Source: a virus (Duplodnaviria > Caudoviricetes). From it: a stretch of DNA of 64,000 bases. A program made the translations under genes and the position numbers. Location: the IMG/VR virus record IMGVR_UViG_3300014205_000008, positions 1 to 64,000 of that record; one strand, 5' to 3'. The notes under the pieces were generated by a model that saw nothing but the letters and a program-made list of their open reading frames with translations, was not told the origin of the DNA and did not search any database. Shown here piece by piece: positions 201-11,895 of the stretch (position 1 is the stretch's first letter; each line of letters starts with the position of its first letter).

Positions 201-815
201 ATGAATGAAGATGTTCCTATTCTAATTAGTTTAAAAAAACTTTTAGAATATAAATTAGCCTGTGAAGATTATATATTTTTATATCTTCTTTATATTGGCG
301 AAAGGTGGAAATTAAGTAAATATTTAACAGAAGTAAAAAACATTAATGCGCAAAAATATCTCAAACTAATTGAGTCAGGTATGGTTGAGAAAATCAACCC
401 ACACATTAGTACTATTTCTCTAAATAATCTTAATACCACTCAAAAGTTTAAGGACATTATTGAAGGAATAAATAACGAACAAAAAATTGAAAATTGGATA
501 GAAAAATGGTATGCTTTGTGGCCTCCTGGTATTAAAACTGGTGGATATTATCTTAAAACAGATAAAACAGGATCTTTAAGAAAAATGAAGAGATTTGTTG
601 TAAAATATCCTGAATATACACAAGAAGATATTATGCAGGCTACAGAGAACTATTTAAGAGAACAATCAATAAAAGGTTATTCTTTTACTAAACTTGCTCC
701 ATACTTCATTGAAAAAGACGGCTTATCTGTCTTGGCAGGAGAGTGTGAAGCGGTTAAAGAAAAAGCAACTCAAGTAATTATGAAAGGAGACATGTATGGA
801 AATGAAGAGCTATGA
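201..815 (+). CDS. Hypothetical protein upstream of DnaB (possible replication initiator or helicase loader)
   Basis: 204-aa ORF overlapping the dnaB start; function inferred from position only. Confidence 0.55.
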   Translation: MNEDVPILISLKKLLEYKLACEDYIFLYLLYIGERWKLSKYLTEVKNINAQKYLKLIESGMVEKINPHISTISLNNLNTTQKFKDIIEGINNEQKIENWIEKWYALWPPGIKTGGYYLKTDKTGSLRKMKRFVVKYPEYTQEDIMQATENYLREQSIKGYSFTKLAPYFIEKDGLSVLAGECEAVKEKATQVIMKGDMYGNEEL

Positions 816-1283
816 TCCTCTTAACATAATTACTCAAGGAGAGGCTATTGAAAGAGCTAATAAGAAGATTTATTTTAATATGCATAATAAATTTCCTGGA
901 TTAGTAACTAGATGGCTTAAAATAAATAGAGCTCTTGGAGGTGCTTTTAGATTTGGAGAGATTACTTATATAAGTGGTCCTTCTGGCTCTGGAAAATCGT
1001 ATTTACTAAATATGATAAGAGAAGATTTTGCTGGAGACTTAAATAAAAGTTATCCAAATAAATTTAAAATATTAGCATTATCTTTTGAGATGGGAGCTGA
1101 AGACGAAGTTATTAGAACTTATAGTAGTTCTTTAAATACTAGTTACAGCTTACTTGTATCGGCAAATGAAAAAATTACTAAGGAATATTATAAAATTATT
1201 GAGGAAACTTCAAAAAAACTTAATAACAACAAAATATTTTATGTAGAAACAACTGGGAATAGAAAACGAATACTTTCTACCGT
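796..1283 (+). CDS. dnaB: DnaB-like replicative helicase, exon 1
   Basis: TRWLKINRALGG, Walker A GPSGSGKS, SFEM motif; unspliced frame stops at TAA 1288-1290 inside the intron P1 loop. Confidence 0.92.
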
Positions 1284-1362
1284 AAACTAAATCTGCGGCT
1301 TTATACAGTAATGTATATAGAAAATTCCGAATAACGGGGAAACCCTTTTTTAAAATTAAAAT

Positions 1363-1983
1363 ATGTACGTAACTTATAAAACATACAAAGATAATAAATT
1401 AATAGATAATTACAAAAACACATCTTGTTTTAGTGAATTGTTTAATAATCAATGGGATAAAATGGAATTATTACTTTATGAGTCTTCACTAAGTAAAGGA
1501 CAATTAAAATTTTGGTTTGATTTTGTAAAAAAGATTGAACCTAAAATTAAACTTAGAGAAGATAATTATTGTATAATTCCGTATCAAGGTAAAGGTAAAA
1601 CACTAACGTTAGTTACAATATTAAGATTCCTTTGGGAAGATATAAATCATTATGATACTATTATCCCTTTAACAAAAGAAGTTATTAAACTAGTTCCTGA
1701 TATTGATGAAATGGGGGCAGTAGTTCTTGCTTCAAGTATAACTCATGAGTGCGACGGATGGGGACATTCATTAGTTAATGCAGTTGCCACTAAGATACCA
1801 AGAAAATGGCACTATAGAAGGTATAAAGGAAATTCTATTTTTGGTCTTACAGCTTTAAATGATCATGATAGTTCCTCTTATAAAAATAGATGGCTTCTTA
1901 ATAGATTAAGAACTCAAAAAGAAACTCCTTTAGATGTTAAACCTATACTTAAACATTTTAATATTCCATACAATGAACAATAA
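1363..1983 (+). CDS. Hypothetical protein (intron cargo, loop L5)
   Basis: 206-aa ORF with A-rich leader, between P5 strands (1344-1350 / 1988-1995); no LAGLIDADG, GIY-YIG or HNH motif. Confidence 0.8.
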   Translation: MYVTYKTYKDNKLIDNYKNTSCFSELFNNQWDKMELLLYESSLSKGQLKFWFDFVKKIEPKIKLREDNYCIIPYQGKGKTLTLVTILRFLWEDINHYDTIIPLTKEVIKLVPDIDEMGAVVLASSITHECDGWGHSLVNAVATKIPRKWHYRRYKGNSIFGLTALNDHDSSSYKNRWLLNRLRTQKETPLDVKPILKHFNIPYNEQ

Positions 1984-2122
1984 TAATAAAGAAGGCAATC
2001 CCGTGACGTTACTTAGTAATGAAGAGAATGAATATTTAGTATTATTATTAAAAGATCAAATTATATATGGTCTGTTTGATAATGATGAAGAATATGAACT
2101 TGCAAAAAAATATTCTTCTTAA
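1973..2122 (+). CDS. Small ORF overprinting P5'/P4'/P6 and loop L6 of the intron
   Basis: ATG 1973 overlaps the end of the previous ORF; MNNNNKEGNPVT...; may join 2067-2336 through the A7 run at 2104-2110. Confidence 0.45.
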   Translation: MNNNNKEGNPVTLLSNEENEYLVLLLKDQIIYGLFDNDEEYELAKKYSS

Positions 2123-2336
2123 ATTACAATACGTCCGAACGACTGACAAGGAGCAACCTACCTATTATGAATTAGATAAATGGTTTGAAGGACAAAGAAC
2201 TGCAACAGTCTATGAAAAACCAATAGGTAAATTCTTTGGAACAAAACTTAAAACTAAAGTATTACAATTAAGTGGTATGGAGGTTGTTTTGTTTGAAGAT
2301 GGTACATATACTTTATCTGATACAACAGGAGGCTGA
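2067..2336 (+). CDS. Small ORF crossing P6'/P7/P3' and filling loop L8 of the intron
   Basis: Open frame ending TGA 2334-2336 at the P8 3' strand; true start uncertain. Confidence 0.55.
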   Translation: MVCLIMMKNMNLQKNILLKLQYVRTTDKEQPTYYELDKWFEGQRTATVYEKPIGKFFGTKLKTKVLQLSGMEVVLFEDGTYTLSDTTGG

Positions 2337-2368
2337 TGATACAGTCTGATCTATAAAAATAAAATTTA

Positions 2369-2704
2369 ATGAAAAAAGAAATAATAGAGTATTTTAACTC
2401 AAAACAATTAAAGGTTTTAGATGTTAATCCAGGAGGATATAATAAATCTTTCTATACCGGTGTAACTGTAGGATATATTGCAAAATATGTTTGTCATACA
2501 ACACCAGGTAGAATTGTTAGGTTACTTTGGAAGATGCATCAAAATGGTGAATTAAGAGCATTGTTCTGCGGAACAGTCAACGAACCCGTTTTTGAATCAG
2601 CAACTTTCCCTACTAATCATTGGAATTATGAAAAAGGTAATTGGGGTGCAGACATTAATGATCTTAAAAAACATTTAGAATCTTTCGTTAAAACTAAATT
2701 ATAG
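2369..2704 (+). CDS. Hypothetical protein (intron cargo, loop L9; possibly winged-helix-like)
   Basis: 111-aa ORF between P9 strands TCTATAA(2350-56)/TTATAGA(2699-2705). Confidence 0.75.
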   Translation: MKKEIIEYFNSKQLKVLDVNPGGYNKSFYTGVTVGYIAKYVCHTTPGRIVRLLWKMHQNGELRALFCGTVNEPVFESATFPTNHWNYEKGNWGADINDLKKHLESFVKTKL

Positions 2705-2758
2705 AGTTTAGCAGAAATGACTAAGCCTCTTTTGTAATAAATAATAAAAAATAATATT

Positions 2759-2980
2759 ATGTCTAAAATTTTAAAGCTAACCGTAAAACAACTTACGAAT
2801 TTAATAGGATCTTATGTAATAATGAGAAAACCTACATCAACGATTACCAAAAACAAAAGATATATTGTAAAAAATATTCAATTTTATTCTTATACAAAAA
2901 AGAAAAATTCTATTCTTACAATTATTAATGATTTTGGTAAAGTTATTTCAATTCGTGAAGATAGAATTACAATTGAGTAA
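2759..2980 (+). CDS. Small basic hypothetical protein (intron cargo, loop L9.2)
   Basis: 73-aa ORF between P9.2 strands CTCTTTTGTAAT(2727-38)/ATTACAATTGAG(2966-77). Confidence 0.7.
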   Translation: MSKILKLTVKQLTNLIGSYVIMRKPTSTITKNKRYIVKNIQFYSYTKKKNSILTIINDFGKVISIREDRITIE

Positions 2981-2988
2981 CAAAAATG

Positions 2989-3475
2989 AGAAAAGTTTCA
3001 AAAAGATTATCCAGAACATAAATTAGTAGTTACAATAGATCACTCTTTACTAATGGAATATTTAGATGAAATTAGTGAGGTGGATCTTATAAATCAAATG
3101 TCACGTTTAGCTTTAGTACTTAAGAAAAAGTATGGAGCAATGGTAATAATGTTAGGTCAGTTAAATGATAAATTAGAACAACCAGAGCGATTAAAGACAC
3201 CACAATTACAATATCCGACTAAAACCGATATTCATGGTGGAAAATCTATATACGCAATCGCTGATACGGTAATAATTATTCATAGACCTGAACTATTAAA
3301 CCTGCAAACATATGGACCTAAATTTTATCCTACAAAGGATTTAATTGTGTTACATTTTTTGAAATCTAGATTAAACGGAAGTGAAGGTGTTTTGAGAATG
3401 AGGCAAGATTTTAGTCATGGTACATTATTAATGTGGCAGGATGAAGTCAAAACTACTCAAGAAACGCTTTTTTAG
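2989..3475 (+). CDS. dnaB: DnaB-like replicative helicase, exon 2
   Basis: LVVTIDH (Walker B region), LGQLN, P..TDIHGG.SI...AD.V..IHRP, KSR; spliced product 324 aa. Confidence 0.92.
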
Positions 3476-3545
3476 CACTTCTAAGACACTTTTTTATTAT
3501 AGTTGATACATTGTGTCATTTATATTAAAAATATCATTAAAACTT
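3476..3545 (+). repeat. Dispersed ~70-bp element, copy A
   Basis: CTAAG..TTT..TGATACATTGTGTCA..TTAAA pattern shared with 20310-20379. Confidence 0.45.
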
Positions 3546-3549
3546 ATTT

Positions 3550-4221
3550 ATGGGAGTATTAATATTGGTAGAAGGAGAACCAGGAACTGGTAAATCAAGA
3601 GGTATTTTAAATCTTGATCCAGCAACAACGATTGTTCTTAGACCTAACACGAAAGACTTGCCTTTTCCTGGAGCAAGAAAACTTTATAATGAAGAAGCTA
3701 AGAACATGTTTCATGTTTCTTCTTTACAGGAAGTCGGAGAATATATTACAGACATTAATTCTGGTAAGAAAACCAAAGTTATTGTAGTAGAAGATTTCTC
3801 ACATTTATTGGGACAAAGAGTATTAGAAGATTCTAATATAGTTGGTTACACTAAATGGAATAAATTAGCGGTTGACGCTTTTGAAGCAGTTATAGGAATA
3901 GAAAATGAACTAAGAGATGATTTATACGTAATATTAATAGCACACACAACTACTGTTCAAAAAGCAGAAGGGGAAATAGTTACGCACATGCTGACCCCTG
4001 GTAAATTACTTGATAATTTAATTAAGATTCCAAGTTATTTTACCTATGTGTTTCATACAGAGGTTATAGAAGAAAAAGGAAAGATCCTCTATAAATTCTT
4101 AACCAACCGTGATGGGTCTGGTAAAGAAGCAAAAAGTCCAGAAGGATGTTTTGAGCTGTATGAAGAAAATGATTATGCCATGCTTATCAAGAAAATTGAG
4201 GCTTATCAAAATGGCAACTAA
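3550..4221 (+). CDS. AAA_24/Sak4-like ATPase (recombination or annealing)
   Basis: Walker A GEPGTGKS, VIVVED, LIAH, AKSP motifs. Confidence 0.8.
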   Translation: MGVLILVEGEPGTGKSRGILNLDPATTIVLRPNTKDLPFPGARKLYNEEAKNMFHVSSLQEVGEYITDINSGKKTKVIVVEDFSHLLGQRVLEDSNIVGYTKWNKLAVDAFEAVIGIENELRDDLYVILIAHTTTVQKAEGEIVTHMLTPGKLLDNLIKIPSYFTYVFHTEVIEEKGKILYKFLTNRDGSGKEAKSPEGCFELYEENDYAMLIKKIEAYQNGN

Positions 4222-4239: not shown

Positions 4240-4755
4240 ATGAGTAAAAAATTCGGATTTAGTGATGTTGAAGAAGTAAAGTCAAGAATTGAACCTGGTG
4301 TTGAAGAAGTTGAATTTACTGGCGTAGAATGGGGCGAAAATGATAATGGTAAAGCATTCATGTCAATTGGCATGGTTTCTTTATCAGGTAATCATGAACA
4401 TTCAGAACGTTTATATTTCTCTACCAAAAAAGGTGAGAAAATATCTCTTCAAAGAATTAAAACTATTCTAATGACTATATTAGGCGAAGAAAAAGCTAAT
4501 AAGGAGTATGATGTAGAAGGCCTTAATAAAATTCTTACTGGTAAACAGGCAAGAATTAAATTTATTGGTGAAGAATATGAAGGTGAAAATGGAATTAAAG
4601 TTAAAACCCAATTTGCGTTTGCAAACTTTATCGAAAATATTGATGTTTCTGCAGAAAATTCAAAATTACATTTTGACTCAAGCCGTAATATCAAATTACT
4701 TCCTCAATCTCCTAAGATGAAGGAAAAATCAAAGAAAGATGTCTTATTCGAGTAA
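4240..4755 (+). CDS. Putative single-stranded DNA-binding protein
   Basis: Follows the Sak4-like ATPase; beta-rich sequence typical of phage SSBs in this position. Confidence 0.55.
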   Translation: MSKKFGFSDVEEVKSRIEPGVEEVEFTGVEWGENDNGKAFMSIGMVSLSGNHEHSERLYFSTKKGEKISLQRIKTILMTILGEEKANKEYDVEGLNKILTGKQARIKFIGEEYEGENGIKVKTQFAFANFIENIDVSAENSKLHFDSSRNIKLLPQSPKMKEKSKKDVLFE

Positions 4756-5071
4756 TCAACAAAGAATGATTGATGCTTTATTAGACCAAATGTTGAGGAC
4801 CTCTCTTTGGGGGGTCCTTGACCTTTGTCTTTTGAAGAAGAAATTTGAAATAATAGATCTAGTTATTGAACTAAGAGAAGAAGAATATTTTAAACCTTAT
4901 GGATTTACCGTTACATTAATTGATGGTGGAAACTTTGTTCAAAAAATTCCATTCTTTGAAAACAATGATGAATTTATAAAAGAAAATAATCTATACTTTT
5001 TAGGTGAAAAATCATATCCTAGTTATTTAGCGTTTATGAATAAAAGTGTAGAAAGACATAAATCCTTGTAA
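4739..5071 (+). CDS. Hypothetical protein
   Basis: 110-aa ORF abutting the primase start. Confidence 0.6.
   Translation: MSYSSNQQRMIDALLDQMLRTSLWGVLDLCLLKKKFEIIDLVIELREEEYFKPYGFTVTLIDGGNFVQKIPFFENNDEFIKENNLYFLGEKSYPSYLAFMNKSVERHKSL
4792..4821 (+). terminator. GC-rich hairpin just after ssb (possible terminator or processing site)
   Basis: GTTGAGGACCTCT/GGGGGTCCTTGAC stem followed by CTTTGTCTTTT. Confidence 0.4.
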
Positions 5072-6115
5072 ATGAAAAAAGTATTCAATTTTAACACTAA
5101 TAATATAACAAAAGATAAAGTTAAAGAAATATTATCTGATAACCAAATATATGAGTTTTATCTAGGTGATAACATTGAATTTACACGAAAATTTAATTCT
5201 CCGTTTAGAAAAGATGATCACCCTAGTCTCTCCTTTTTCTTAATTAATAATCATACTATATTATGGAGAGATTGGGGTTCTTCTTTACAAGATAAACCAC
5301 AAGATGTTTTTTCTTTTGTTATGACCTATTACAATTGTTCGTTTAGAGAGGCATTGGAATATATTAATATTGATTTTAACTTAAATTTTACTAGCGATAT
5401 TCAAGTATCAACTGTAATTTTTGATAGAGAAATTCCTACTAAAAGAGCTTTTAAAAAAGTTAAAGAGAAGAAGATAATAGAAGTAGAGACGCAAAACTTT
5501 ACAATAGAAGACGTTAAGTTTTGGAAGTCGTTTGAAATATCTTTAGAAACTTTAATTAAATATAATGTTAGATCTATAAAATATTGTTGGTTAAATTATA
5601 AATTATTTAGAACCTATACAAGATCTAATCCAATATATTCATTTGAGTTAATAAATGAAGAAGGAGAAATAGTATACAAAATATACTCTCCTTATGAAGA
5701 AAAGAATAATAAGTGGTTTAGTAATGTATCTAAAGATACCGTACAAGGCCTATCTCAATTAAAGTATGAATCAGATACTCTAATTATAACAAAAAGTTTA
5801 AAAGATGTAATGGTTTTAGATACATTTGGTTATGAATCTATTGCTTTTCAATCAGAAATTTCTGAATTTAGTAATTTTATATACGAAAATGTTGTATCTT
5901 TGTACAAAAATATAATTGTATTTTATGATAACGATCAGCATGGTATAACTAATTCAAATAATATGTGTGAAAAGTACTCTTTTAAACAAATTTCAATACC
6001 GCAAGAATTCAAAGCAAAAGATATAAGTGATTATGTAAAGAAATATGGTGTTGATAATACTAAAATTTTCATTAAAACACTTATCAATAATGCAAAGATA
6101 TATAATAGTGTATAG
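5072..6115 (+). CDS. dnaG: DNA primase (TOPRIM, crAss type)
   Basis: SPFRKDDHPS, WRDWG, IITKSLKDVMVL, YDND..G, KDISD motifs. Confidence 0.9.
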   Translation: MKKVFNFNTNNITKDKVKEILSDNQIYEFYLGDNIEFTRKFNSPFRKDDHPSLSFFLINNHTILWRDWGSSLQDKPQDVFSFVMTYYNCSFREALEYINIDFNLNFTSDIQVSTVIFDREIPTKRAFKKVKEKKIIEVETQNFTIEDVKFWKSFEISLETLIKYNVRSIKYCWLNYKLFRTYTRSNPIYSFELINEEGEIVYKIYSPYEEKNNKWFSNVSKDTVQGLSQLKYESDTLIITKSLKDVMVLDTFGYESIAFQSEISEFSNFIYENVVSLYKNIIVFYDNDQHGITNSNNMCEKYSFKQISIPQEFKAKDISDYVKKYGVDNTKIFIKTLINNAKIYNSV

Positions 6116-6401
6116 TACATTTTACTGTAAGAAAGTAGTAGAGGTAATATATGCACGAAGTAGATATATGGCAATGATAGAAATAGCTACTACTAACAAT
6201 GAAGTAGAGATTAAATCTATTAGAGAGTTATATAATCCGTATTTTGATCCCAATAGTGTGATAACAAACTATGAACTATCTTTACTGAAAGATGGATTTC
6301 ATAATGTTACAAATAAATTTAATTTATCTCTTAACATCTATAACACAATAGCACAGATCTATGGAGATAAGTTATTAAAAGCACATGAATATGGAGGATA
6401 A
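6090..6401 (+). CDS. Hypothetical protein
   Basis: ORF 6045-6401; likely start at MQRYII (6090). Confidence 0.55.
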   Translation: MQRYIIVYSTFYCKKVVEVIYARSRYMAMIEIATTNNEVEIKSIRELYNPYFDPNSVITNYELSLLKDGFHNVTNKFNLSLNIYNTIAQIYGDKLLKAHEYGG

Positions 6402-6786
6402 ATATTTCTTTGAGGTTAAAGTAGAAAACTTCATAGATAGAATTCAATTATCAAAAAAACAGAGACCAACATATTTTAAGAAAAAAGATAAGATTCCAAA
6501 AAAGTATAGTACTGAACAGTTTGCTTTTGTAAATAATTCACTAATCAATATTGTAACAGGTGAAAAAGTAATTAAAAATTCTATAAAAGTTGGAACTCCT
6601 AATATAAAATTAATTACTGGACAGTACTTCTGGGAGGGAGCACATCCTCACATTAGAAGAAAGATTAAGAAAGAAATGTCTGAATACTTTTATAAGTATT
6701 TAAAAGACGCTCCGCAAGTAAAAGATGATCAATACCCTATCGGAGTTCGTATTGATTTATATGATGATATGAACTCTGGACAGGAT
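6385..6786 (+). CDS. rusA: RusA-like Holliday junction resolvase, exon 1
   Basis: Ends ...SGQD at U6786; joins exon 2 to give the D-I-D-N motif. Confidence 0.8.
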
Positions 6787-6809
6787 TAAAGTAAAAAAAT
6801 GTTAAATTA

Positions 6810-6841
6810 TTTGGAAAAAACTGATTTTTGTTGTATCTTTG
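6810..6841 (+). promoter_or_regulatory. Bacteroidota-type sigma promoter driving the intron endonuclease
   Basis: TTTG (6810-13), 20-nt spacer, TATCTTTG (6834-41), matching the -33/-7 consensus TTTG / TAnnTTTG. Confidence 0.7.
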
Positions 6842-6864
6842 TATTTAATATAAAAAATATAAAT

Positions 6865-7554
6865 ATGGAACAATTAAATCAATTAATTCTAGGAAGCATA
6901 CTTGGAGATGGTTATTTAGATAAAATAATAAATAACGGTAATTCAAGAATGACTTTTGGACATAGTGAAAGTCAATTAGAATATTTAAAATATAAAATGT
7001 CTATTTTTAATAAATATGATTTATTTAATAATAGTTTTTATAAAAATAAATCAATTTCAGAAAGATATAAAAATGGATATTGTATATCTTATCATACAAA
7101 AACTAAAAAAGATCCATTATTTAATACATATAGAAATGAATTTTATCCATTTGGAAAAAAGATTCTTACAAATAAAATATATGAATTAAATAATTTTAGA
7201 TTGGCAATTTGGTTTATGGATGATGGCAGTAATACTACAAGTAGTTATCAATTAAATTCTAATGGATTTAGTAGAAATGAATGTAATATATTACGAGATA
7301 TGTTATTTAAAAATTTTAATATAGAAACTTCATTATGGAAAACACATAATATTATATACATTAAATCTAAAAGTGCAGAATTATTTAAAAATTTAATTTC
7401 TGAATTTATAATAGATTCAATGACATATAAATTAAAAACCAAATATAAACATAAAAGAGTCCTGAATAAATCGGATAAATTGCTGGAAAACCCTGGAGAG
7501 GACAATCAGCAGCCTATCCAGAATCTAAATGGTTCTGGCGGGTTCAACGACTAG
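6865..7554 (+). mobile_element. LAGLIDADG homing endonuclease (intron-encoded)
   Basis: ILGSILGDGYL and LAIWFMDDGS motifs; likely start ATG 6865; C-terminus reads through the intron core. Confidence 0.9.
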
Positions 7555-7759
7555 ATATTGAAACTAAGAAGTGCTATACGCAGAGTGGTAGTGGAGTATA
7601 CTAAACCATACGAGCGCAGGTATACTCTCACTTCTTAGAATATAATATATCCACGAACATCCGACACCTTATGGTGATGATATAGTCTGGGCTGCAACCA
7701 TAACTTAAAAAAGAAATTGCAGAATCTAAAGATAAAGAACTTTAGAGATAACAAAACCG

Positions 7760-7948
7760 ATCGACAACTTCATCTTCTTGTACAGAAAAGTTATACACGA
7801 TGTATTAACTGCTCACGAAATGAATCATAAACCAATAATAATTGATGATTCAAAACTTTATTTAAGAGATATACCTACAAGGTTTTATCCAATAGATGAG
7901 GGAATAGAAAAGTTTTTACATATACAAATTTATTCATTAAATAATTAA
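7760..7948 (+). CDS. rusA: RusA-like resolvase, exon 2 (missed by the ORF track)
   Basis: IDNFIFLYRKVIHDVL...IIIDDS...; RusA DxDN..K..D..DD catalytic pattern; spliced product 196 aa. Confidence 0.85.
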   Translation: MDNFIFLYRKVIHDVLTAHEMNHKPIIIDDSKLYLRDIPTRFYPIDEGIEKFLHIQIYSLNN

Positions 7949-7951
7949 AAT

Positions 7952-8299
7952 ATGTGTTTAAATATTAAATGGTATAGTTGGAAACATACCGCAAAAAAAG
8001 ATATTATTGTTTATAAATATTTAGATAAATGTAACGATAATACATTAAAAACTCCTTACAGAGGAGTTATAATAGAAATTAGCAAAACATATATATCTGT
8101 AATTGAAAGAATAGATAATGTAATTGAAAAAGCACTACATTCTTTTGCTCAACAAAAAGGCGCTCAAGATAATTTATTTAATCAGATAGTAATAGTTGAA
8201 TGTATAATTCCAAAAGGATCGTATTATTATACAGGTAAATTTATAGGACATAAAGCTTACGCCTCTAATAAATTAATTTACAAAAGAATTATATCTTAA
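7952..8299 (+). CDS. Hypothetical phage protein
   Basis: 115 aa; TAKKDIIVYK..TPY..HSF..CIIPKGS.YY.G pattern typical of a Bacteroidota phage family. Confidence 0.7.
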   Translation: MCLNIKWYSWKHTAKKDIIVYKYLDKCNDNTLKTPYRGVIIEISKTYISVIERIDNVIEKALHSFAQQKGAQDNLFNQIVIVECIIPKGSYYYTGKFIGHKAYASNKLIYKRIIS

Positions 8300-9285
8300 T
8301 GACAGATAAAGAATATTTCGCAGATAAAGAATTTTTAACAAATACTATGTTAGGTTGGATTTTAGTTAGCCCACAATACTTTAAGAAACAAATATCCTTA
8401 CTTGGTTTAGACAAAGAAACTACTGAAAGATATTTCGTCTTTGGAGGTGCTGTACATTGTAGATTATTAGAAAATAAAGAATTCGCTAATAGATATTTTG
8501 TATCAGCCGCAAACTCTCCTTCTAATGTAGTTCAAAAGAAATTCTGTACATTACTATCTGTACATAAAAAAATAGATGATAAGTCTTTAGTTTCTGCTTA
8601 TAAGTTATCTTATTCTACTGAAAAGATGAAAGAAGAAGATATTTTAAAAAAAGCTAAAGAATTATATGAAACCTATTCTGAATACGTTTCAGAACAAAGA
8701 AATAAAGGTGACAAGATAGAGTTAACTTCTTATGAATATGATTCAATCCTTGCAATAGAAAGAAATATTCTTTTTAATGCTAGAGCTAAAGAGCTTTTAT
8801 TTTCAAAAAACGATACAGAGAACAATGAATTTATTATATTTTTTACATTTAGAGAAATAAAATTTAAAAGTAAAATTGATAGATTTATTATTGATGTTGA
8901 AAACAAGACTATTACAATAATTGACATTAAGACACACTCTCCTAAAAGAGAAGGATCTAATCTTCAGAAATCATTTGAAAAATCATTCTTTGAATTCAAT
9001 TATGACAGACAACTTTATTTATATACAACTGCAGTGGTTAGTCATTTTATAGAAAAATATCCTGAAGAGGATTTATCTTTATACAAAATAGAACAGAAAA
9101 TTATCTTAATAAAGGCAAACTTTGATAATGAAGTTCTTGTTATTAATTTAGATGAATCTATACTTAATTCTGGAGAAGAAAACTTCAATAAAGCGTTTGA
9201 TATGTATAATTATTACGAAGCTAATGGATATGATAAAGTATTCGGATTAAATTCTCAAGGAGAAATAACCCTTTTTAAAAAATAA
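8299..9285 (+). CDS. PD-(D/E)XK exonuclease (RecE/ExoVIII-like)
   Basis: FGGAVHCRLLE, KSKIDR, IIDIKT, YDRQL.LY motifs. Confidence 0.85.
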   Translation: MTDKEYFADKEFLTNTMLGWILVSPQYFKKQISLLGLDKETTERYFVFGGAVHCRLLENKEFANRYFVSAANSPSNVVQKKFCTLLSVHKKIDDKSLVSAYKLSYSTEKMKEEDILKKAKELYETYSEYVSEQRNKGDKIELTSYEYDSILAIERNILFNARAKELLFSKNDTENNEFIIFFTFREIKFKSKIDRFIIDVENKTITIIDIKTHSPKREGSNLQKSFEKSFFEFNYDRQLYLYTTAVVSHFIEKYPEEDLSLYKIEQKIILIKANFDNEVLVINLDESILNSGEENFNKAFDMYNYYEANGYDKVFGLNSQGEITLFKK

Positions 9286-9288
9286 AAT

Positions 9289-11895
9289 ATGAGCGAAAAC
9301 AATTTAACTGATTTTTTTATTAACACTTATGGATTTAAGTTAGAAAATGATTCAAAAGAAAAATTAGAAAAATTTTGTTTAGAATATTTTGGTGGAGATG
9401 AATTAGCTGCATCTGTATTTATTAATAAATATTCTGCAAAATATAACACTCCAACAGACATGCATGAAAGAATTGCCAATAATATACATCGTATTGAAAG
9501 TAAATATCCAAATCCTTTAAGTATTGATTATATTTTTTCTTTATTAGATAAATTTAAATATTTAATTCCTGGTGGTTCTGTAATGTTTGGATTGAATAAT
9601 TATAATATGCCTGTATCTTTAGGTAATTGTTTTGTAATTGGAGAAGAAAACGAAAAAGATTCTTATGGAACAATTATAAGACGTGATGAGGAACAAGTAC
9701 AGTTAATGAAGCGCAGAGGTGGCGTTGGCCAAGACCTTTCCTTCTTAAGAGGCAAAGGATCTCGTGTTAATAATGCAGCAAGAACCTCTACAGGTGTTGT
9801 TCCTTTCGCAGAGAGATATTCTAACTCTATAAAAGAAGTAGCTCAGGATGGCAGGAGAGGAGCTGGTATGCTTACTCTTAATATTACTCATCCAGATGCA
9901 TTAGATTTTATTAAAGCAAAAGCTAATACTGATAAAATTAATGGAGCTAATATTTCTTTAAAGATTGATGATTTTTTTATGAATTCTTTAAAAGAGGTAA
10001 ATGATATTTTTATTAAAAAAAAACTTTCTTTTGATGAGGCTAATGAAATAGCGGCTCCTTATTTTCGGAAAACATCGTCAGTATACGAACCCCGTTTTAA
10101 TAATGATTTTGTTTTTAATGAATTAATTAAAAATACTAGAAACTTTTCAGAACCTGGAATTTTATTTTGGGACAGGGTAGAAGAAGAAATTGATTCTATA
10201 CTTTATGATGAATTTTCTCCTGTATCTACAAATCCATGCGGAGAGTTACCCTTATCTCCTTACGAAAGTTGTAGACTAGCTTCATTAAATTTATACAGTT
10301 ATGTTGATAATCCATTTACAGAAGATGCTGAATTTAATTTTGACTTATTTGAAGACCATGTTATAAGTGCTCAACGAATAATGGATGATATTGTTGATTT
10401 AGAAATAGAGCAAATAAATATTATTCTTAGAAAATTAGGATCAGAAATAATTATTCCTAATTCTGAACAAGAAGATTTTTATACAGATGAAAAATATAAC
10501 GGAAGTATTGATGTTGAGATTTCATTATGGAAGAAGATTCTTTCTAAAACTGAAAGAGGTAGAAGAACTGGTTTAGGAATTACTGCTTTTGGAGATATGT
10601 TTGCTGCATTAGGAATTAAATATGATTCTAATGATGGTATATTTATGGCTGAAAATATATTTTCTTTAATGTTAAAGAATTCTTATAAGTCATCTATTAT
10701 AATGGCAAAAGAAAGAGGTTTTTTCCCGGCTTATAATGGCGGTGAACTTGTTAATAAAGATTTCCAAGTCAAAATGATTGATACGTTAAAAACATTATTT
10801 CATAATGAACCAGAAATTATAGAAATGTGGAAAATTTATGGAAGAAGAAATATCCAAAATCTTGCAATAGCCCCTACCGGTAGTATTAGTATTATGACTC
10901 AAACTACTTCAGGAATAGAGCCCGTGTTCAACTTAAGATATAAAAGACGTAAGAGAGTTAATGGAGAAGTTGATAAATCATCCAAAAAAGAAATTATTAC
11001 AGATGATAATGGAACTTGGGAGCTCTTTAATGTAACTCATCCTAAATTTAAAACTTGGTACAAGATTAAATATCCTGATAGGAAGCCAGATTCTCTTGAT
11101 TCTATGCCTGAAGAGTTATTTAAAGAAATAGTAAAAGAAAGTCCTTATTTTGAGTCTTCAGCACATGAAATTGATCCTATTAAAAAGATTACCTTACAAT
11201 CTATTGCACAGAAATATATTGATGGTGCTATTAGCATAACGCATAACTTACCAGAAGATGTAACAGAAGAGCAGGTTAAAAAACTTGCTTTGTACGCATG
11301 GGAAACTGGTTGTAAAGGATTTACTATATATCGTGATAATTCAAGAGGTGGTATTCTTATTAAAGATAAGAAACCGGCTTTTGAGAAGAACGATGCCGCT
11401 CAAAGACCGGAATCTATTGATTGTGATGTTCATCAAACTTCTATAAAAGGAGAATTATGGACTGTATTAATAGGTACAATAAATAAATCACCCTATGAGA
11501 TTTTTGCATTTAAATCAAATAACAACGCTAAACTACCATCTGGTGAAGGATATAAGTTGTCTAAAATTAAAAGTAAACAATATTCTCTTACTAAAAACGG
11601 TGAAGATGTAATTAGCAATATACTTGATTATTTTGATGCTCCAGAAGAAGAGTTTATAACTCGACTTATGAGTGGAGCTTTTAGACACGGGATGGATGTA
11701 TCATATGTCTATGAACAATTAGTTAAATCTAATGGATATGTAACTGATTTTTCTAAAGCAATAGCACGAATACTTAATAAATATGTTACTAAATCGCTTT
11801 CAAAAAAACAAGCGGAAACTTGCCCAGAGTGTGGTAATACTGTCGTCTTTTCTGGCGGTTGCGTCTCTTGCTCTTGTGGATGGTCTAAATGTTAG
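9289..11895 (+). CDS. nrdJ: Class II (adenosylcobalamin-dependent) ribonucleotide reductase
   Basis: NCFV, RGGVG, GRRGA, TNPCGE, IAPTGS, C-terminal CPECG..CVSCSCGWSKC zinc ribbon; no nrdB nearby. Confidence 0.93.
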   Translation: MSENNLTDFFINTYGFKLENDSKEKLEKFCLEYFGGDELAASVFINKYSAKYNTPTDMHERIANNIHRIESKYPNPLSIDYIFSLLDKFKYLIPGGSVMFGLNNYNMPVSLGNCFVIGEENEKDSYGTIIRRDEEQVQLMKRRGGVGQDLSFLRGKGSRVNNAARTSTGVVPFAERYSNSIKEVAQDGRRGAGMLTLNITHPDALDFIKAKANTDKINGANISLKIDDFFMNSLKEVNDIFIKKKLSFDEANEIAAPYFRKTSSVYEPRFNNDFVFNELIKNTRNFSEPGILFWDRVEEEIDSILYDEFSPVSTNPCGELPLSPYESCRLASLNLYSYVDNPFTEDAEFNFDLFEDHVISAQRIMDDIVDLEIEQINIILRKLGSEIIIPNSEQEDFYTDEKYNGSIDVEISLWKKILSKTERGRRTGLGITAFGDMFAALGIKYDSNDGIFMAENIFSLMLKNSYKSSIIMAKERGFFPAYNGGELVNKDFQVKMIDTLKTLFHNEPEIIEMWKIYGRRNIQNLAIAPTGSISIMTQTTSGIEPVFNLRYKRRKRVNGEVDKSSKKEIITDDNGTWELFNVTHPKFKTWYKIKYPDRKPDSLDSMPEELFKEIVKESPYFESSAHEIDPIKKITLQSIAQKYIDGAISITHNLPEDVTEEQVKKLALYAWETGCKGFTIYRDNSRGGILIKDKKPAFEKNDAAQRPESIDCDVHQTSIKGELWTVLIGTINKSPYEIFAFKSNNNAKLPSGEGYKLSKIKSKQYSLTKNGEDVISNILDYFDAPEEEFITRLMSGAFRHGMDVSYVYEQLVKSNGYVTDFSKAIARILNKYVTKSLSKKQAETCPECGNTVVFSGGCVSCSCGWSKC

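Follow-up and report, generated by a model that had tools for sequence, protein, structure and literature searches.

A candidate group I intron carrying several small genes in its loops, probably not endonuclease genes, in the DnaB-like helicase gene of a crAss-like phage

How could a phage obtain a complete replicative helicase from a gene whose two halves are separated by 1705 nucleotides (nt) that themselves contain several small open reading frames (ORFs)? This question is raised by positions 1284 to 2988 of IMG/VR virus record IMGVR_UViG_3300014205_000008, of which we analyzed positions 1 to 64,000 (the window). The record is complete, measures 96,958 bp and carries direct terminal repeats, and the window is its first 64 kb. 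The phage is identified as crAss-like by its replication genes together with a giant ORF of 4881 amino acids (aa). A preliminary description of the locus had proposed a group I intron in dnaB with genes other than endonuclease genes in its loops. The explanation we favor, and consider likely, is a self-splicing-type group I intron in a crAss-like DnaB-like helicase gene, with co-oriented genes held in its loops that probably do not encode endonucleases. The interrupted gene is laid out as follows.

796-1283, + strand: helicase exon 1 (DnaB-like, Walker A motif GPSGSGKS); phrog_19 match at 2e-10; U1283 of the U.G splice pair at its end
1284-2988, + strand: putative group I intron, 1705 nt; frame restored on removal, terminal G2988, orthologue in L002, covariation
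2989-3475, + strand: helicase exon 2 (Walker B motif VVTIDH, DnaB_C); PF03796 match at 1.2e-7; first bases AGA pair in P10

Each half was recognizable by itself. The exon 1 frame, which as an ORF spans 796-1290, matched positions 323-437 of the phrog_19 profile (DnaB-like replicative helicase), and the exon 2 frame (2990-3472) matched positions 461-587 of the same profile as well as PF03796 (DnaB_C). When U1283 was joined to A2989 by removal of 1284-2988, completing a codon GTA that is split after its second base, the result was one 324-aa ORF with a single terminal stop. The full-length alignment of this joined frame with the helicase of crAssphage cr113_1, likewise 324 aa, had no gap at the junction, and an ungapped block covering residues 88-172 crossed the junction at residue 163. 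From the restored frame and this collinearity we concluded that the earlier observation of a split helicase, whose halves fuse when the segment is removed, was correct. The insertion lies between the Walker A motif in exon 1 and the Walker B motif in exon 2, and the joined chain has the RecA-type core of DnaB_C and phrog_19 proteins. Both halves matched 'DNA helicase' genes of Crassvirales with 30-38% identity, and in the matched records crAss-type helicases are contiguous genes; a blastn search of 700-3600 against cultured phage records gave no match.

An orthologous intron (4362-5999) was found in L002 at the same site and phase, in a helicase 73-74% identical to that of the window. Exon 1 of the two genes showed 74% aa identity, with 65 nt differences at codon position 3 versus 16 at position 2, and exon 2 showed 73% identity, with 74 differences at position 3 versus 22 at position 2; both helicase exons are under purifying selection. 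The splice sites of L002 read ...CUACCGU followed by AAAC at the 5' end and ACAAACUG followed by AGAGG at the 3' end, and its guide sequence and core are as in the window, with different loop contents. Because the insertion site is the same in both, the copy in the window was probably inherited vertically. Exon 1 of the window ends in ...CUUUCUACCGU1283 and the intron in ...UAACAAAAAUG2988, and between these boundaries the following ribozyme elements, all on the + strand, could be placed.

1280-1283 with 1295-1298: P1, CCGU/GCGG, 4 bp, containing the U.G splice pair
1292-1294 with 2989-2991: P10, UCU/AGA, in which the guide pairs with the 3' exon
1292-1320: internal guide (P10 and P1 strands) and P2; internal guide sequence (IGS) CUGCGGCUU common to the window, L002 and L117
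1299-1320: P2 hairpin with GUAA loop; a GNRA loop is kept in all ten members, with differing stem sequences
1325-1328 with 2150-2153: P3, UUCC/GGAG, 4 bp; the last pair takes four pair types across relatives
1325-1351: P3 5' strand, J3/4, P4 5' strand, J4/5 and P5 5' strand; AACGGGGAAACC occurs once in the window
1334-1339 with 1999-2004: P4, like that of td
1345-1351 with 1988-1994: P5, CUUUUUU/AAAGAAG, closing loop L5
1988-2009: P5 3' strand, J5/4 GCAAU, P4 3' strand and P6 5' strand; 14 of 16 nt as in T4-type td
2005-2009 with 2131-2135: P6, GACGU/ACGUC, covarying
2010-2130: long structured P6 arm (L6), 120 nt; minimum free energy -28 kcal/mol, z -4.1 and -4.4 versus shuffles
2131-2161: P6 3' strand, J6/7, P7 5' strand, J7/3 ACAA, P3 3' strand and P8 5' strand; 25 of 25 nt identical to L117
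2141-2145 with 2342-2346: P7, GACUG/CAGUC, covarying
2154-2161 with 2328-2335: P8, two mismatches in the window
2162-2327: P8 arm (L8), 165 nt, structured, inside an 89-aa ORF; z -3.1 with the closing stem included
2328-2356: P8 3' strand, J8/7 AUGAUA, P7 3' strand and P9 5' strand; 14 of 15 nt as in td, GAUAUAGUCUGAUCU
2350-2356 with 2699-2705: P9, UCUAUAA/UUAUAGA, closing a 111-aa ORF
2706-2726: P9.1 hairpin, loop CAGAAAUGA
2699-2737: P9 3' strand, P9.1 and P9.2 5' strand; 30 of 31 nt identical to L088
2731-2737 with 2966-2972: P9.2, UUGUAAU/AUUACAA, closing a 73-aa ORF
2966-2988: P9.2 3' strand and the conserved 3' end UAACAAAAAUG with terminal G2988; shared 3' end motif

The core is thus dispersed, with about 215 nt of ribozyme and inserts making up about 87% of the intron. 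All six core segments proposed in the preliminary description coincide with supported helices (P1 to P9.2 and P10), and its caveat that P3 has only about 4 bp was accurate. Besides frame restoration, the locus showed a U.G pair in P1, a P10, a terminal G and the P3/P7 pseudoknot order of helices with covariation, as group I introns do.

Sister introns were recovered from IMG/VR contigs by scanning for the P4 motif and then filtering the hits by motif. Most interrupt the Walker A loop (between GK and T) of a different DnaB-type helicase (L088, L063, L022/L127, L010, L037 and L126); one lies in a ribonucleotide reductase gene (L117) and one in another gene (L014). A scan for the 5' splice and guide signature CCGUAAAC..CUGCGGCUU gave 33 loci, among which no intron other than that of L002 lay at the helicase site used in the window. 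With L010 left out of the counts of paired cells, which therefore cover nine members (other comparisons cover ten), 187 of 198 cells of P3, P6, P7 and P8 were paired in register, with compensatory changes, and pairing fell when the 3' strand was slid by 1-3 nt:

P3: 36 of 36 cells paired in register, at most 18 when slid
P6: 41 of 45 cells paired in register, at most 25 when slid
P7: 45 of 45 cells paired in register, at most 18 when slid
P8: 65 of 72 cells paired in register, at most 32 when slid

Strands swapped between members also fitted worse than cognate strands. The changes were spread over the helices: P7 was GACUG/CAGUC or GACUA/UAGUC, its variable pair being G-C in five of the ten members, the window included, and A-U in the remaining five (five versus four without L010); the last pair (column 4) of P3 was C-G, U-G, U-A or A-U; P6 occurred as GACGU/ACGUC, GCCGU/ACGGU and GGCGC/GCGCC; and P8 varied at six of its eight columns. 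Where P9 was compact it took the forms CUAUAUG-GUGA-CAUAUAG, CUACAUG-GUGA-CAUGUAG and CUGUAUG-GAAA-CAUACAG. The P9.1 stem covaried in eight members, seven of which had the identical loop CAGAAAUGA and one, L126, UAGAAAUGA. The motif UAACA(A/U)A..UG ended all eight introns with a located 3' end. The guide also differed between insertion sites, the subfamily in the Walker A loop having the IGS UUGCCCC, versus CUGCGGC in the window, with P1/P10 pairings GGU/GCC and UUU(U)/AAA(A). We therefore hold it to be highly likely that 1284-2988 is a true group I intron.

Among known introns the closest likeness was to the T4 td intron (group IA2, with I-TevI), which, like the T4 nrdB and nrdD (sunY) introns, is a self-splicing-type intron in a phage DNA-metabolism gene. 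The match of 14 of 16 nt in the P5'-J5/4-P4' stretch was a score reached by none of 300 shuffles, and in the J8/7-P7'-P9 stretch GAUAYAGUCUGAUCU 14 of 15 nt were identical to td. The resemblance extends to a near-identical P4/J5/4 (CAAUCCCGUG) and J8/7-P7', a GNRA-capped P2, a 3' end ...ACAnAAUG, and an ORF looped from a peripheral helix in both. The two introns differ in that td has one ORF, for a GIY-YIG endonuclease, in P6a, whereas the intron in the window has three loop ORFs and a core-overlapping frame and no known endonuclease. They also differ in the P7-P3' region. In the window P3' (GGAG, 2150-2153) follows P7 (2141-2145) after only the 4 nt ACAA, as it does in eight of nine relatives, whereas P3' of td (GAUAGA) lies about 45 nt after P7; therefore the hairpins P7.1 and P7.2 that characterize IA2 introns are absent, and the intron is not strictly IA2. 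The td-like core (P4-P6 and P7), including the P4 that had been noted earlier, thus stood, and the likeness ended at the subgroup details. Covariation fixed P3' at 2150-2153 and ruled out another position, UUGGAA at 2238-2243, that the P7.1/P7.2 of td had suggested.

The Rfam model RF00028 did not match the window either at the gathering threshold or at E<=10. As a control we used L001, a genuine T4-type td intron with I-TevI, and RF00028 missed this too, even at E<=10; the miss on the window is therefore uninformative. The tested relatives of the intron were likewise missed, and only unrelated introns in L028 scored. Since a genuine td intron escapes this model, Rfam-based surveys under-count ORF-bearing phage introns.

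The inserts comprise the following ORFs, of which three lie in peripheral loops and two overlap the core.

1363-1983, + strand: cargo gene 1 (ORF1, 206 aa) in the P5 loop; homologues in L002 and L007, 148 cluster representatives
2369-2704, + strand: cargo gene 2 (111 aa) in the P9 loop; BLASTP 4e-7 to a free-standing 151-aa gene of L007; stop codon in the P9 3' strand
2759-2980, + strand: cargo ORF 3 (73 aa) in the P9.2 loop; BLASTP 5e-5 over 33 aa to the L9.2 ORF of L002
1973-2122 and 2067-2336, + strand: two overlapping ORFs (about 50 and 89 aa) running through P5', P4', P6, P7, P3' and P8; coding status uncertain

ORF1 was 53% identical to the ORF in L5 of L002 and 46% identical to a free-standing gene of L007. 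As it differed from its L002 counterpart in codon usage at 41 of 110 identical residues, ORF1 is under purifying selection. A profile search gathered 148 cluster representatives at E<=1e-3, and an AlphaFold (AF2) model built from an alignment of 70 family members had a predicted local distance difference test score (pLDDT) of 95 and a predicted template modelling score (pTM) of 0.91. The only invariant residues in that alignment were C22, R88 and H135, and there was no acidic metal-binding set. No match was found in Pfam, PHROGs or a PDB profile search, tblastn with ORF1 gave nothing significant, and Foldseek searches of PDB with two models gave nothing at E<=0.001; the structural relatives in BFVD were domains of unnamed proteins, 280-500 aa long, from crAss-like, N4-like and other phages. 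This large and well-modelled family of about 150 clusters is therefore a candidate for a new fold. Three apparent resemblances were not taken as assignments: LAGLIDADG rows in Foldseek (TM 0.16-0.20, probability <=0.09) were noise; a Dop/PafA-like assignment had a best Z of 4.4 in VIA-align wide (135 residues, root-mean-square deviation 3.8), below the noise level of that tool; and Atlas feature hits to small P-loop/DnaC-like clusters, with scores of 0.88-0.89, fell under the 0.9 threshold and count as leads, the GKGKT motif not being conserved in the wider family. The Atlas neighbors of the 111-aa model were winged-helix proteins (FUR, MarR, IclR; TM about 0.5). The 111-aa protein of L9 is probably a winged-helix protein, the resemblance to these regulators being no more than a lead. 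The 73-aa ORF is the weakest of the three. Homologue searches with the 111-aa and 73-aa ORFs returned the window's own proteins only.

The two remaining ORFs differ from these in their position. The frame of about 50 aa reads through P5'-P4'-P6 and that of about 89 aa through P6'-P7-P3'-P8; they overlap at 2067-2122, and their frames differ by 1 nt at an A7 run (2104-2110). A single continuous ORF in the same frame covers this stretch of core in L002, L088, L063, L022, L037, L126 and L117, and the peptide encoded by its L8 part is Cys-rich and conserved in L063 and L117, with 70% identity over 44 aa. The break in the window may reflect decay, slippage or a homopolymer assembly error. The earlier picture of five loops filled with coding sequence must be amended here: the ribozyme is indeed dispersed among coding inserts, with three ORFs lying cleanly in loops, but the remaining two extend over core sequence and the structured arms of P6 and P8.

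To ask whether any of these products is a known homing endonuclease, the five ORFs of the window were compared with the LAGLIDADG, GIY-YIG, HNH, His-Cys box, PD-(D/E)xK and EDxHD families in Pfam and PHROGs, and none matched at E<=0.1. Nor was a known endonuclease domain found in 20 ORFs of the sister introns. As positive controls, the same searches detected LAGLIDADG_2 in the RusA-gene intron of the window (1.3e-32) and also in L010 (3e-38), and GIY-YIG/NUMOD in L014 and L126. Some members of the intron family thus do associate with classical endonucleases, and the copy in the window is one with no recognizable endonuclease. In these comparisons no insert matched a known homing-endonuclease family, as the preliminary description had held, although its wording 'non-endonuclease' rests on absence of evidence. 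Judging from the sequences, it is fairly likely that the loop genes are not the intron's own homing endonuclease.

The contents of the loops varied among relatives, as a check suggested in the preliminary description had anticipated. In L002, P9 is capped by GUGA at the place taken in the window by the 111-aa gene, and four other relatives also have the GUGA tetraloop there; a 96-aa ORF in a 5' hairpin of L002 has no counterpart in the window, and in L002 an 11-bp stem of different sequence occupies the position of P9.2. The two orthologues thus document the gain or loss of loop genes. An ORF in L9 also occurs in L088 and L126, and genes like ORF1 occupy L5 at one helicase site in the window and L002 and at the other in L010 and L022. 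The sister introns share with the window the core sequence, the helices and the loops that take inserts (5' hairpin, L5, L6-L8, L9 and L9.2), as well as an ORF1-like gene in L5, an ORF in L9 and the core-spanning frame. They differ in having four to six ORFs, including types absent from the window (168-185 aa 'CKHCYLD' proteins, a 99-aa protein and 155-188 aa L9.2 proteins).

The same families also occur outside introns. In L007 the DnaB-like helicase gene (7064-8191; phrog_19 at 8e-17) is intron-less, and free-standing homologues of four cargo families (216, 151, 99 and 166 aa) lie on both sides of it within 5258-8979. Upstream lie homologues of ORF1 and of the L9 gene in the window; downstream lie the 99-aa gene, which is 66% identical to the L5 ORF of L088, and the 166-aa gene, whose homologues are the L9.2 ORFs of L063, L010, L022 and L126. 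A free-standing ORF1-like gene also lies downstream of the helicase in L126. Because these families stand free beside an uninterrupted helicase in L007, the cargo is most likely to consist of accessory genes of the replication module, or of small, independent selfish ORFs, which came to occupy splicing-neutral loops. The earlier proposal of ordinary accessory genes gains support from the L007 arrangement, but the same distribution also fits small selfish ORFs, including unrecognized free-standing endonucleases.

We propose the following sequence of events. The helicase gene and the intron would be transcribed as one precursor; no terminator-like site was found inside the intron, and a scan for sigma-70 promoters gave no excess. 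Stems P5, P6, P8, P9 and P9.2 would close the long inserts and so gather the dispersed core of about 215 nt, and guanosine-initiated splicing would then link U1283 to A2989 to give the 324-aa helicase, with the predicted ligated exon junction CUUUCUACCGU joined to AGAAAAGUUU. Three peripheral loops would each carry one co-oriented protein gene (206 aa in L5, 111 aa in L9 and 73 aa in L9.2), and the P6 and P8 arms would be structured RNA that shares its sequence with an ORF, unbroken in relatives and frameshifted in the window. The intron of the window very probably still splices.

Several observations weigh against this explanation. In the window, P1 and P3 are limited to 4 bp each and P8 contains two mismatches; Rfam returned no group I match; hardly anything supports the 73-aa ORF as a gene; and the break in the core-spanning ORF would fit partial decay of the element as well as a homopolymer assembly error. 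The status of the cargo as non-endonuclease reflects the absence of matches to known families, so that a new nuclease family is conceivable, and the recurrence of ORF1-like genes in L5 (window, L002, L010 and L022) fits a role as a new endonuclease or maturase.

The last of these points leads to the best of the rival explanations, which we consider unlikely but the most serious: that at least one cargo ORF, most likely ORF1 in L5, is an unrecognized homing endonuclease or maturase and the element a conventional mobile intron with passengers. Such a role would account for the presence of ORF1-family genes in L5 at two helicase sites, and in the sister intron L014 it is a GIY-YIG gene that occupies L5; moreover, the free-standing position beside the target gene in L007 and L126 resembles that of the free-standing homing endonucleases of T4, seg and mob (PMC2988022), and, as the ORF1 fold has no counterpart in PDB, a new nuclease fold is conceivable. 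Against this, searches of Pfam, PHROGs and PDB profiles linked ORF1 to no nuclease family, its three invariant residues do not include an acidic metal-binding set, and its BFVD relatives are domains of larger unnamed phage proteins. In L010, in addition, a true LAGLIDADG gene is present besides the ORF1-like gene.

A second possibility, which we find improbable, is that the core is a decayed relic that does not splice, the helicase being made as two associating polypeptides or being dispensable through the host DnaB. The short P1 and P3, the P8 mismatches and the frameshifted core-overlapping ORF would suit a relic, and the first ATG of exon 2, at 3053, is in frame and conserved in both the window and L002. 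This ATG lies 21 codons downstream of the 3' splice site, however, and a product started there would lack Walker B (VVTIDH). These 21 codons are open, Walker B lies among them, and their in-frame conservation reaches the splice site, which argues for splicing and against a helicase of two chains. The exon 1 frame reaches a stop two codons into the intron, there is no sign of a separate exon 2 start at the junction, the core helices all pair in the window and relatives alike, and both exons are under purifying selection. The remaining idea, that there is no intron but a cassette of small genes inserted in the helicase, with helices due to chance complementarity in AT-rich DNA, could appeal to the lack of an Rfam match and the shortness of individual helices, but is very improbable given that Rfam fails on the td control as well, that boundaries following the U.G and terminal-G rules restore the frame exactly, and that the same ordered helices with compensatory changes recur in ten sequences, in three unrelated host genes and at two insertion sites, where slid and swapped controls fail.

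For the group I intron with loop-held genes, comparison with known introns indicates an unusual organization. Bacterial and phage group I introns have been described as ORF-less or as carrying a homing endonuclease gene (HEG), sometimes overlapping the core (PMC3984707). In crAss-like phages introns are frequent in core genes and were recognized through endonuclease domains, according to parts of the report of Yutin et al. (2021, PMC7886860), and for Jug phages parts of another report describe splicing of some introns as confirmed with metatranscriptomes (PMC12880540). In those parts of the two reports, introns of crAss-like and jumbo gut phages are either endonuclease-bearing or small (about 206 nt) and ORF-less, and multi-gene non-endonuclease cargo is not described (PMC7886860, PMC12880540). 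Several ORFs in one intron are known from fungal mitochondria as multi-HEG introns, for example in Exserohilum turcicum cob (PMC11835236). Fungal introns also resemble that of the window in that ORFs may extend into the core (PMC3984707). Fungal mitochondrial introns likewise house a non-endonuclease gene (rps3 in the rnl intron mL2449) or, as multi-HEG introns, several ORFs. The rps3 gene is a single essential host gene. The fungal multi-ORF cases differ in being organellar and in having multiple endonucleases, not unrelated small genes in separate loops. Our literature search turned up no account of phage introns that carry several genes other than endonuclease genes, in agreement with the earlier statement that no described example of this layout was known.

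The family thus appears to comprise about ten environmental phage sequences in which three to six unrelated, conserved and apparently non-endonuclease genes lie in separate loops of one ribozyme within an essential replication gene. If the splicing is real, more than 1.5 kb of coding inserts does not keep a ribozyme core from assembling, intron loops are a previously unappreciated niche for phage accessory genes, and standard annotation (Rfam and endonuclease-domain searches) systematically misses such introns and miscalls their hosts as split or truncated. A broader view, which we put forward only tentatively and think possible rather than probable, is that the intron family is a modular gene carrier. 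Its stem-closed, splicing-neutral loops (5' hairpin, L5, L9 and L9.2) would act as docking sites at which small genes of the replication module are gained, lost and swapped, and the accessory sets would ride in an essential gene, move with the intron between phages and host genes (two helicase types and ribonucleotide reductase) and use the precursor or the excised intron RNA for their expression.

Further observations concern other introns and relatives. The window contains a second group I-type intron, in a RusA-like resolvase gene (6385-7948), with a LAGLIDADG_2 ORF at 6799-7554; the 3' end of this endonuclease ORF enters the core, and the J8/7-P7' motif GAUAUAGUC, at 7679, is shared. In L063, 9765-10142 (- strand) gave an Rfam tmRNA match above the gathering score (58 bits) that is possibly spurious. 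In L117 the intron spans 8520-10400 and cuts the ribonucleotide reductase after ...MNGRR, with the guide CUGCGGCUU identical to that of the window; a 172-aa ORF runs through its whole core, a tandem pair of paralogous ORFs (134 and 122 aa) lies after P7', and L130 has an exon end identical to that of L117. In L010 the LAGLIDADG gene lies between P7 and P3'. Two introns occur in one helicase gene in L126 (reverse strand; oriented 5158-9892), as also in L010. In L126 the upstream intron has a GIY-YIG/NUMOD1 endonuclease, and the downstream one belongs to the multi-ORF family and has five ORFs.

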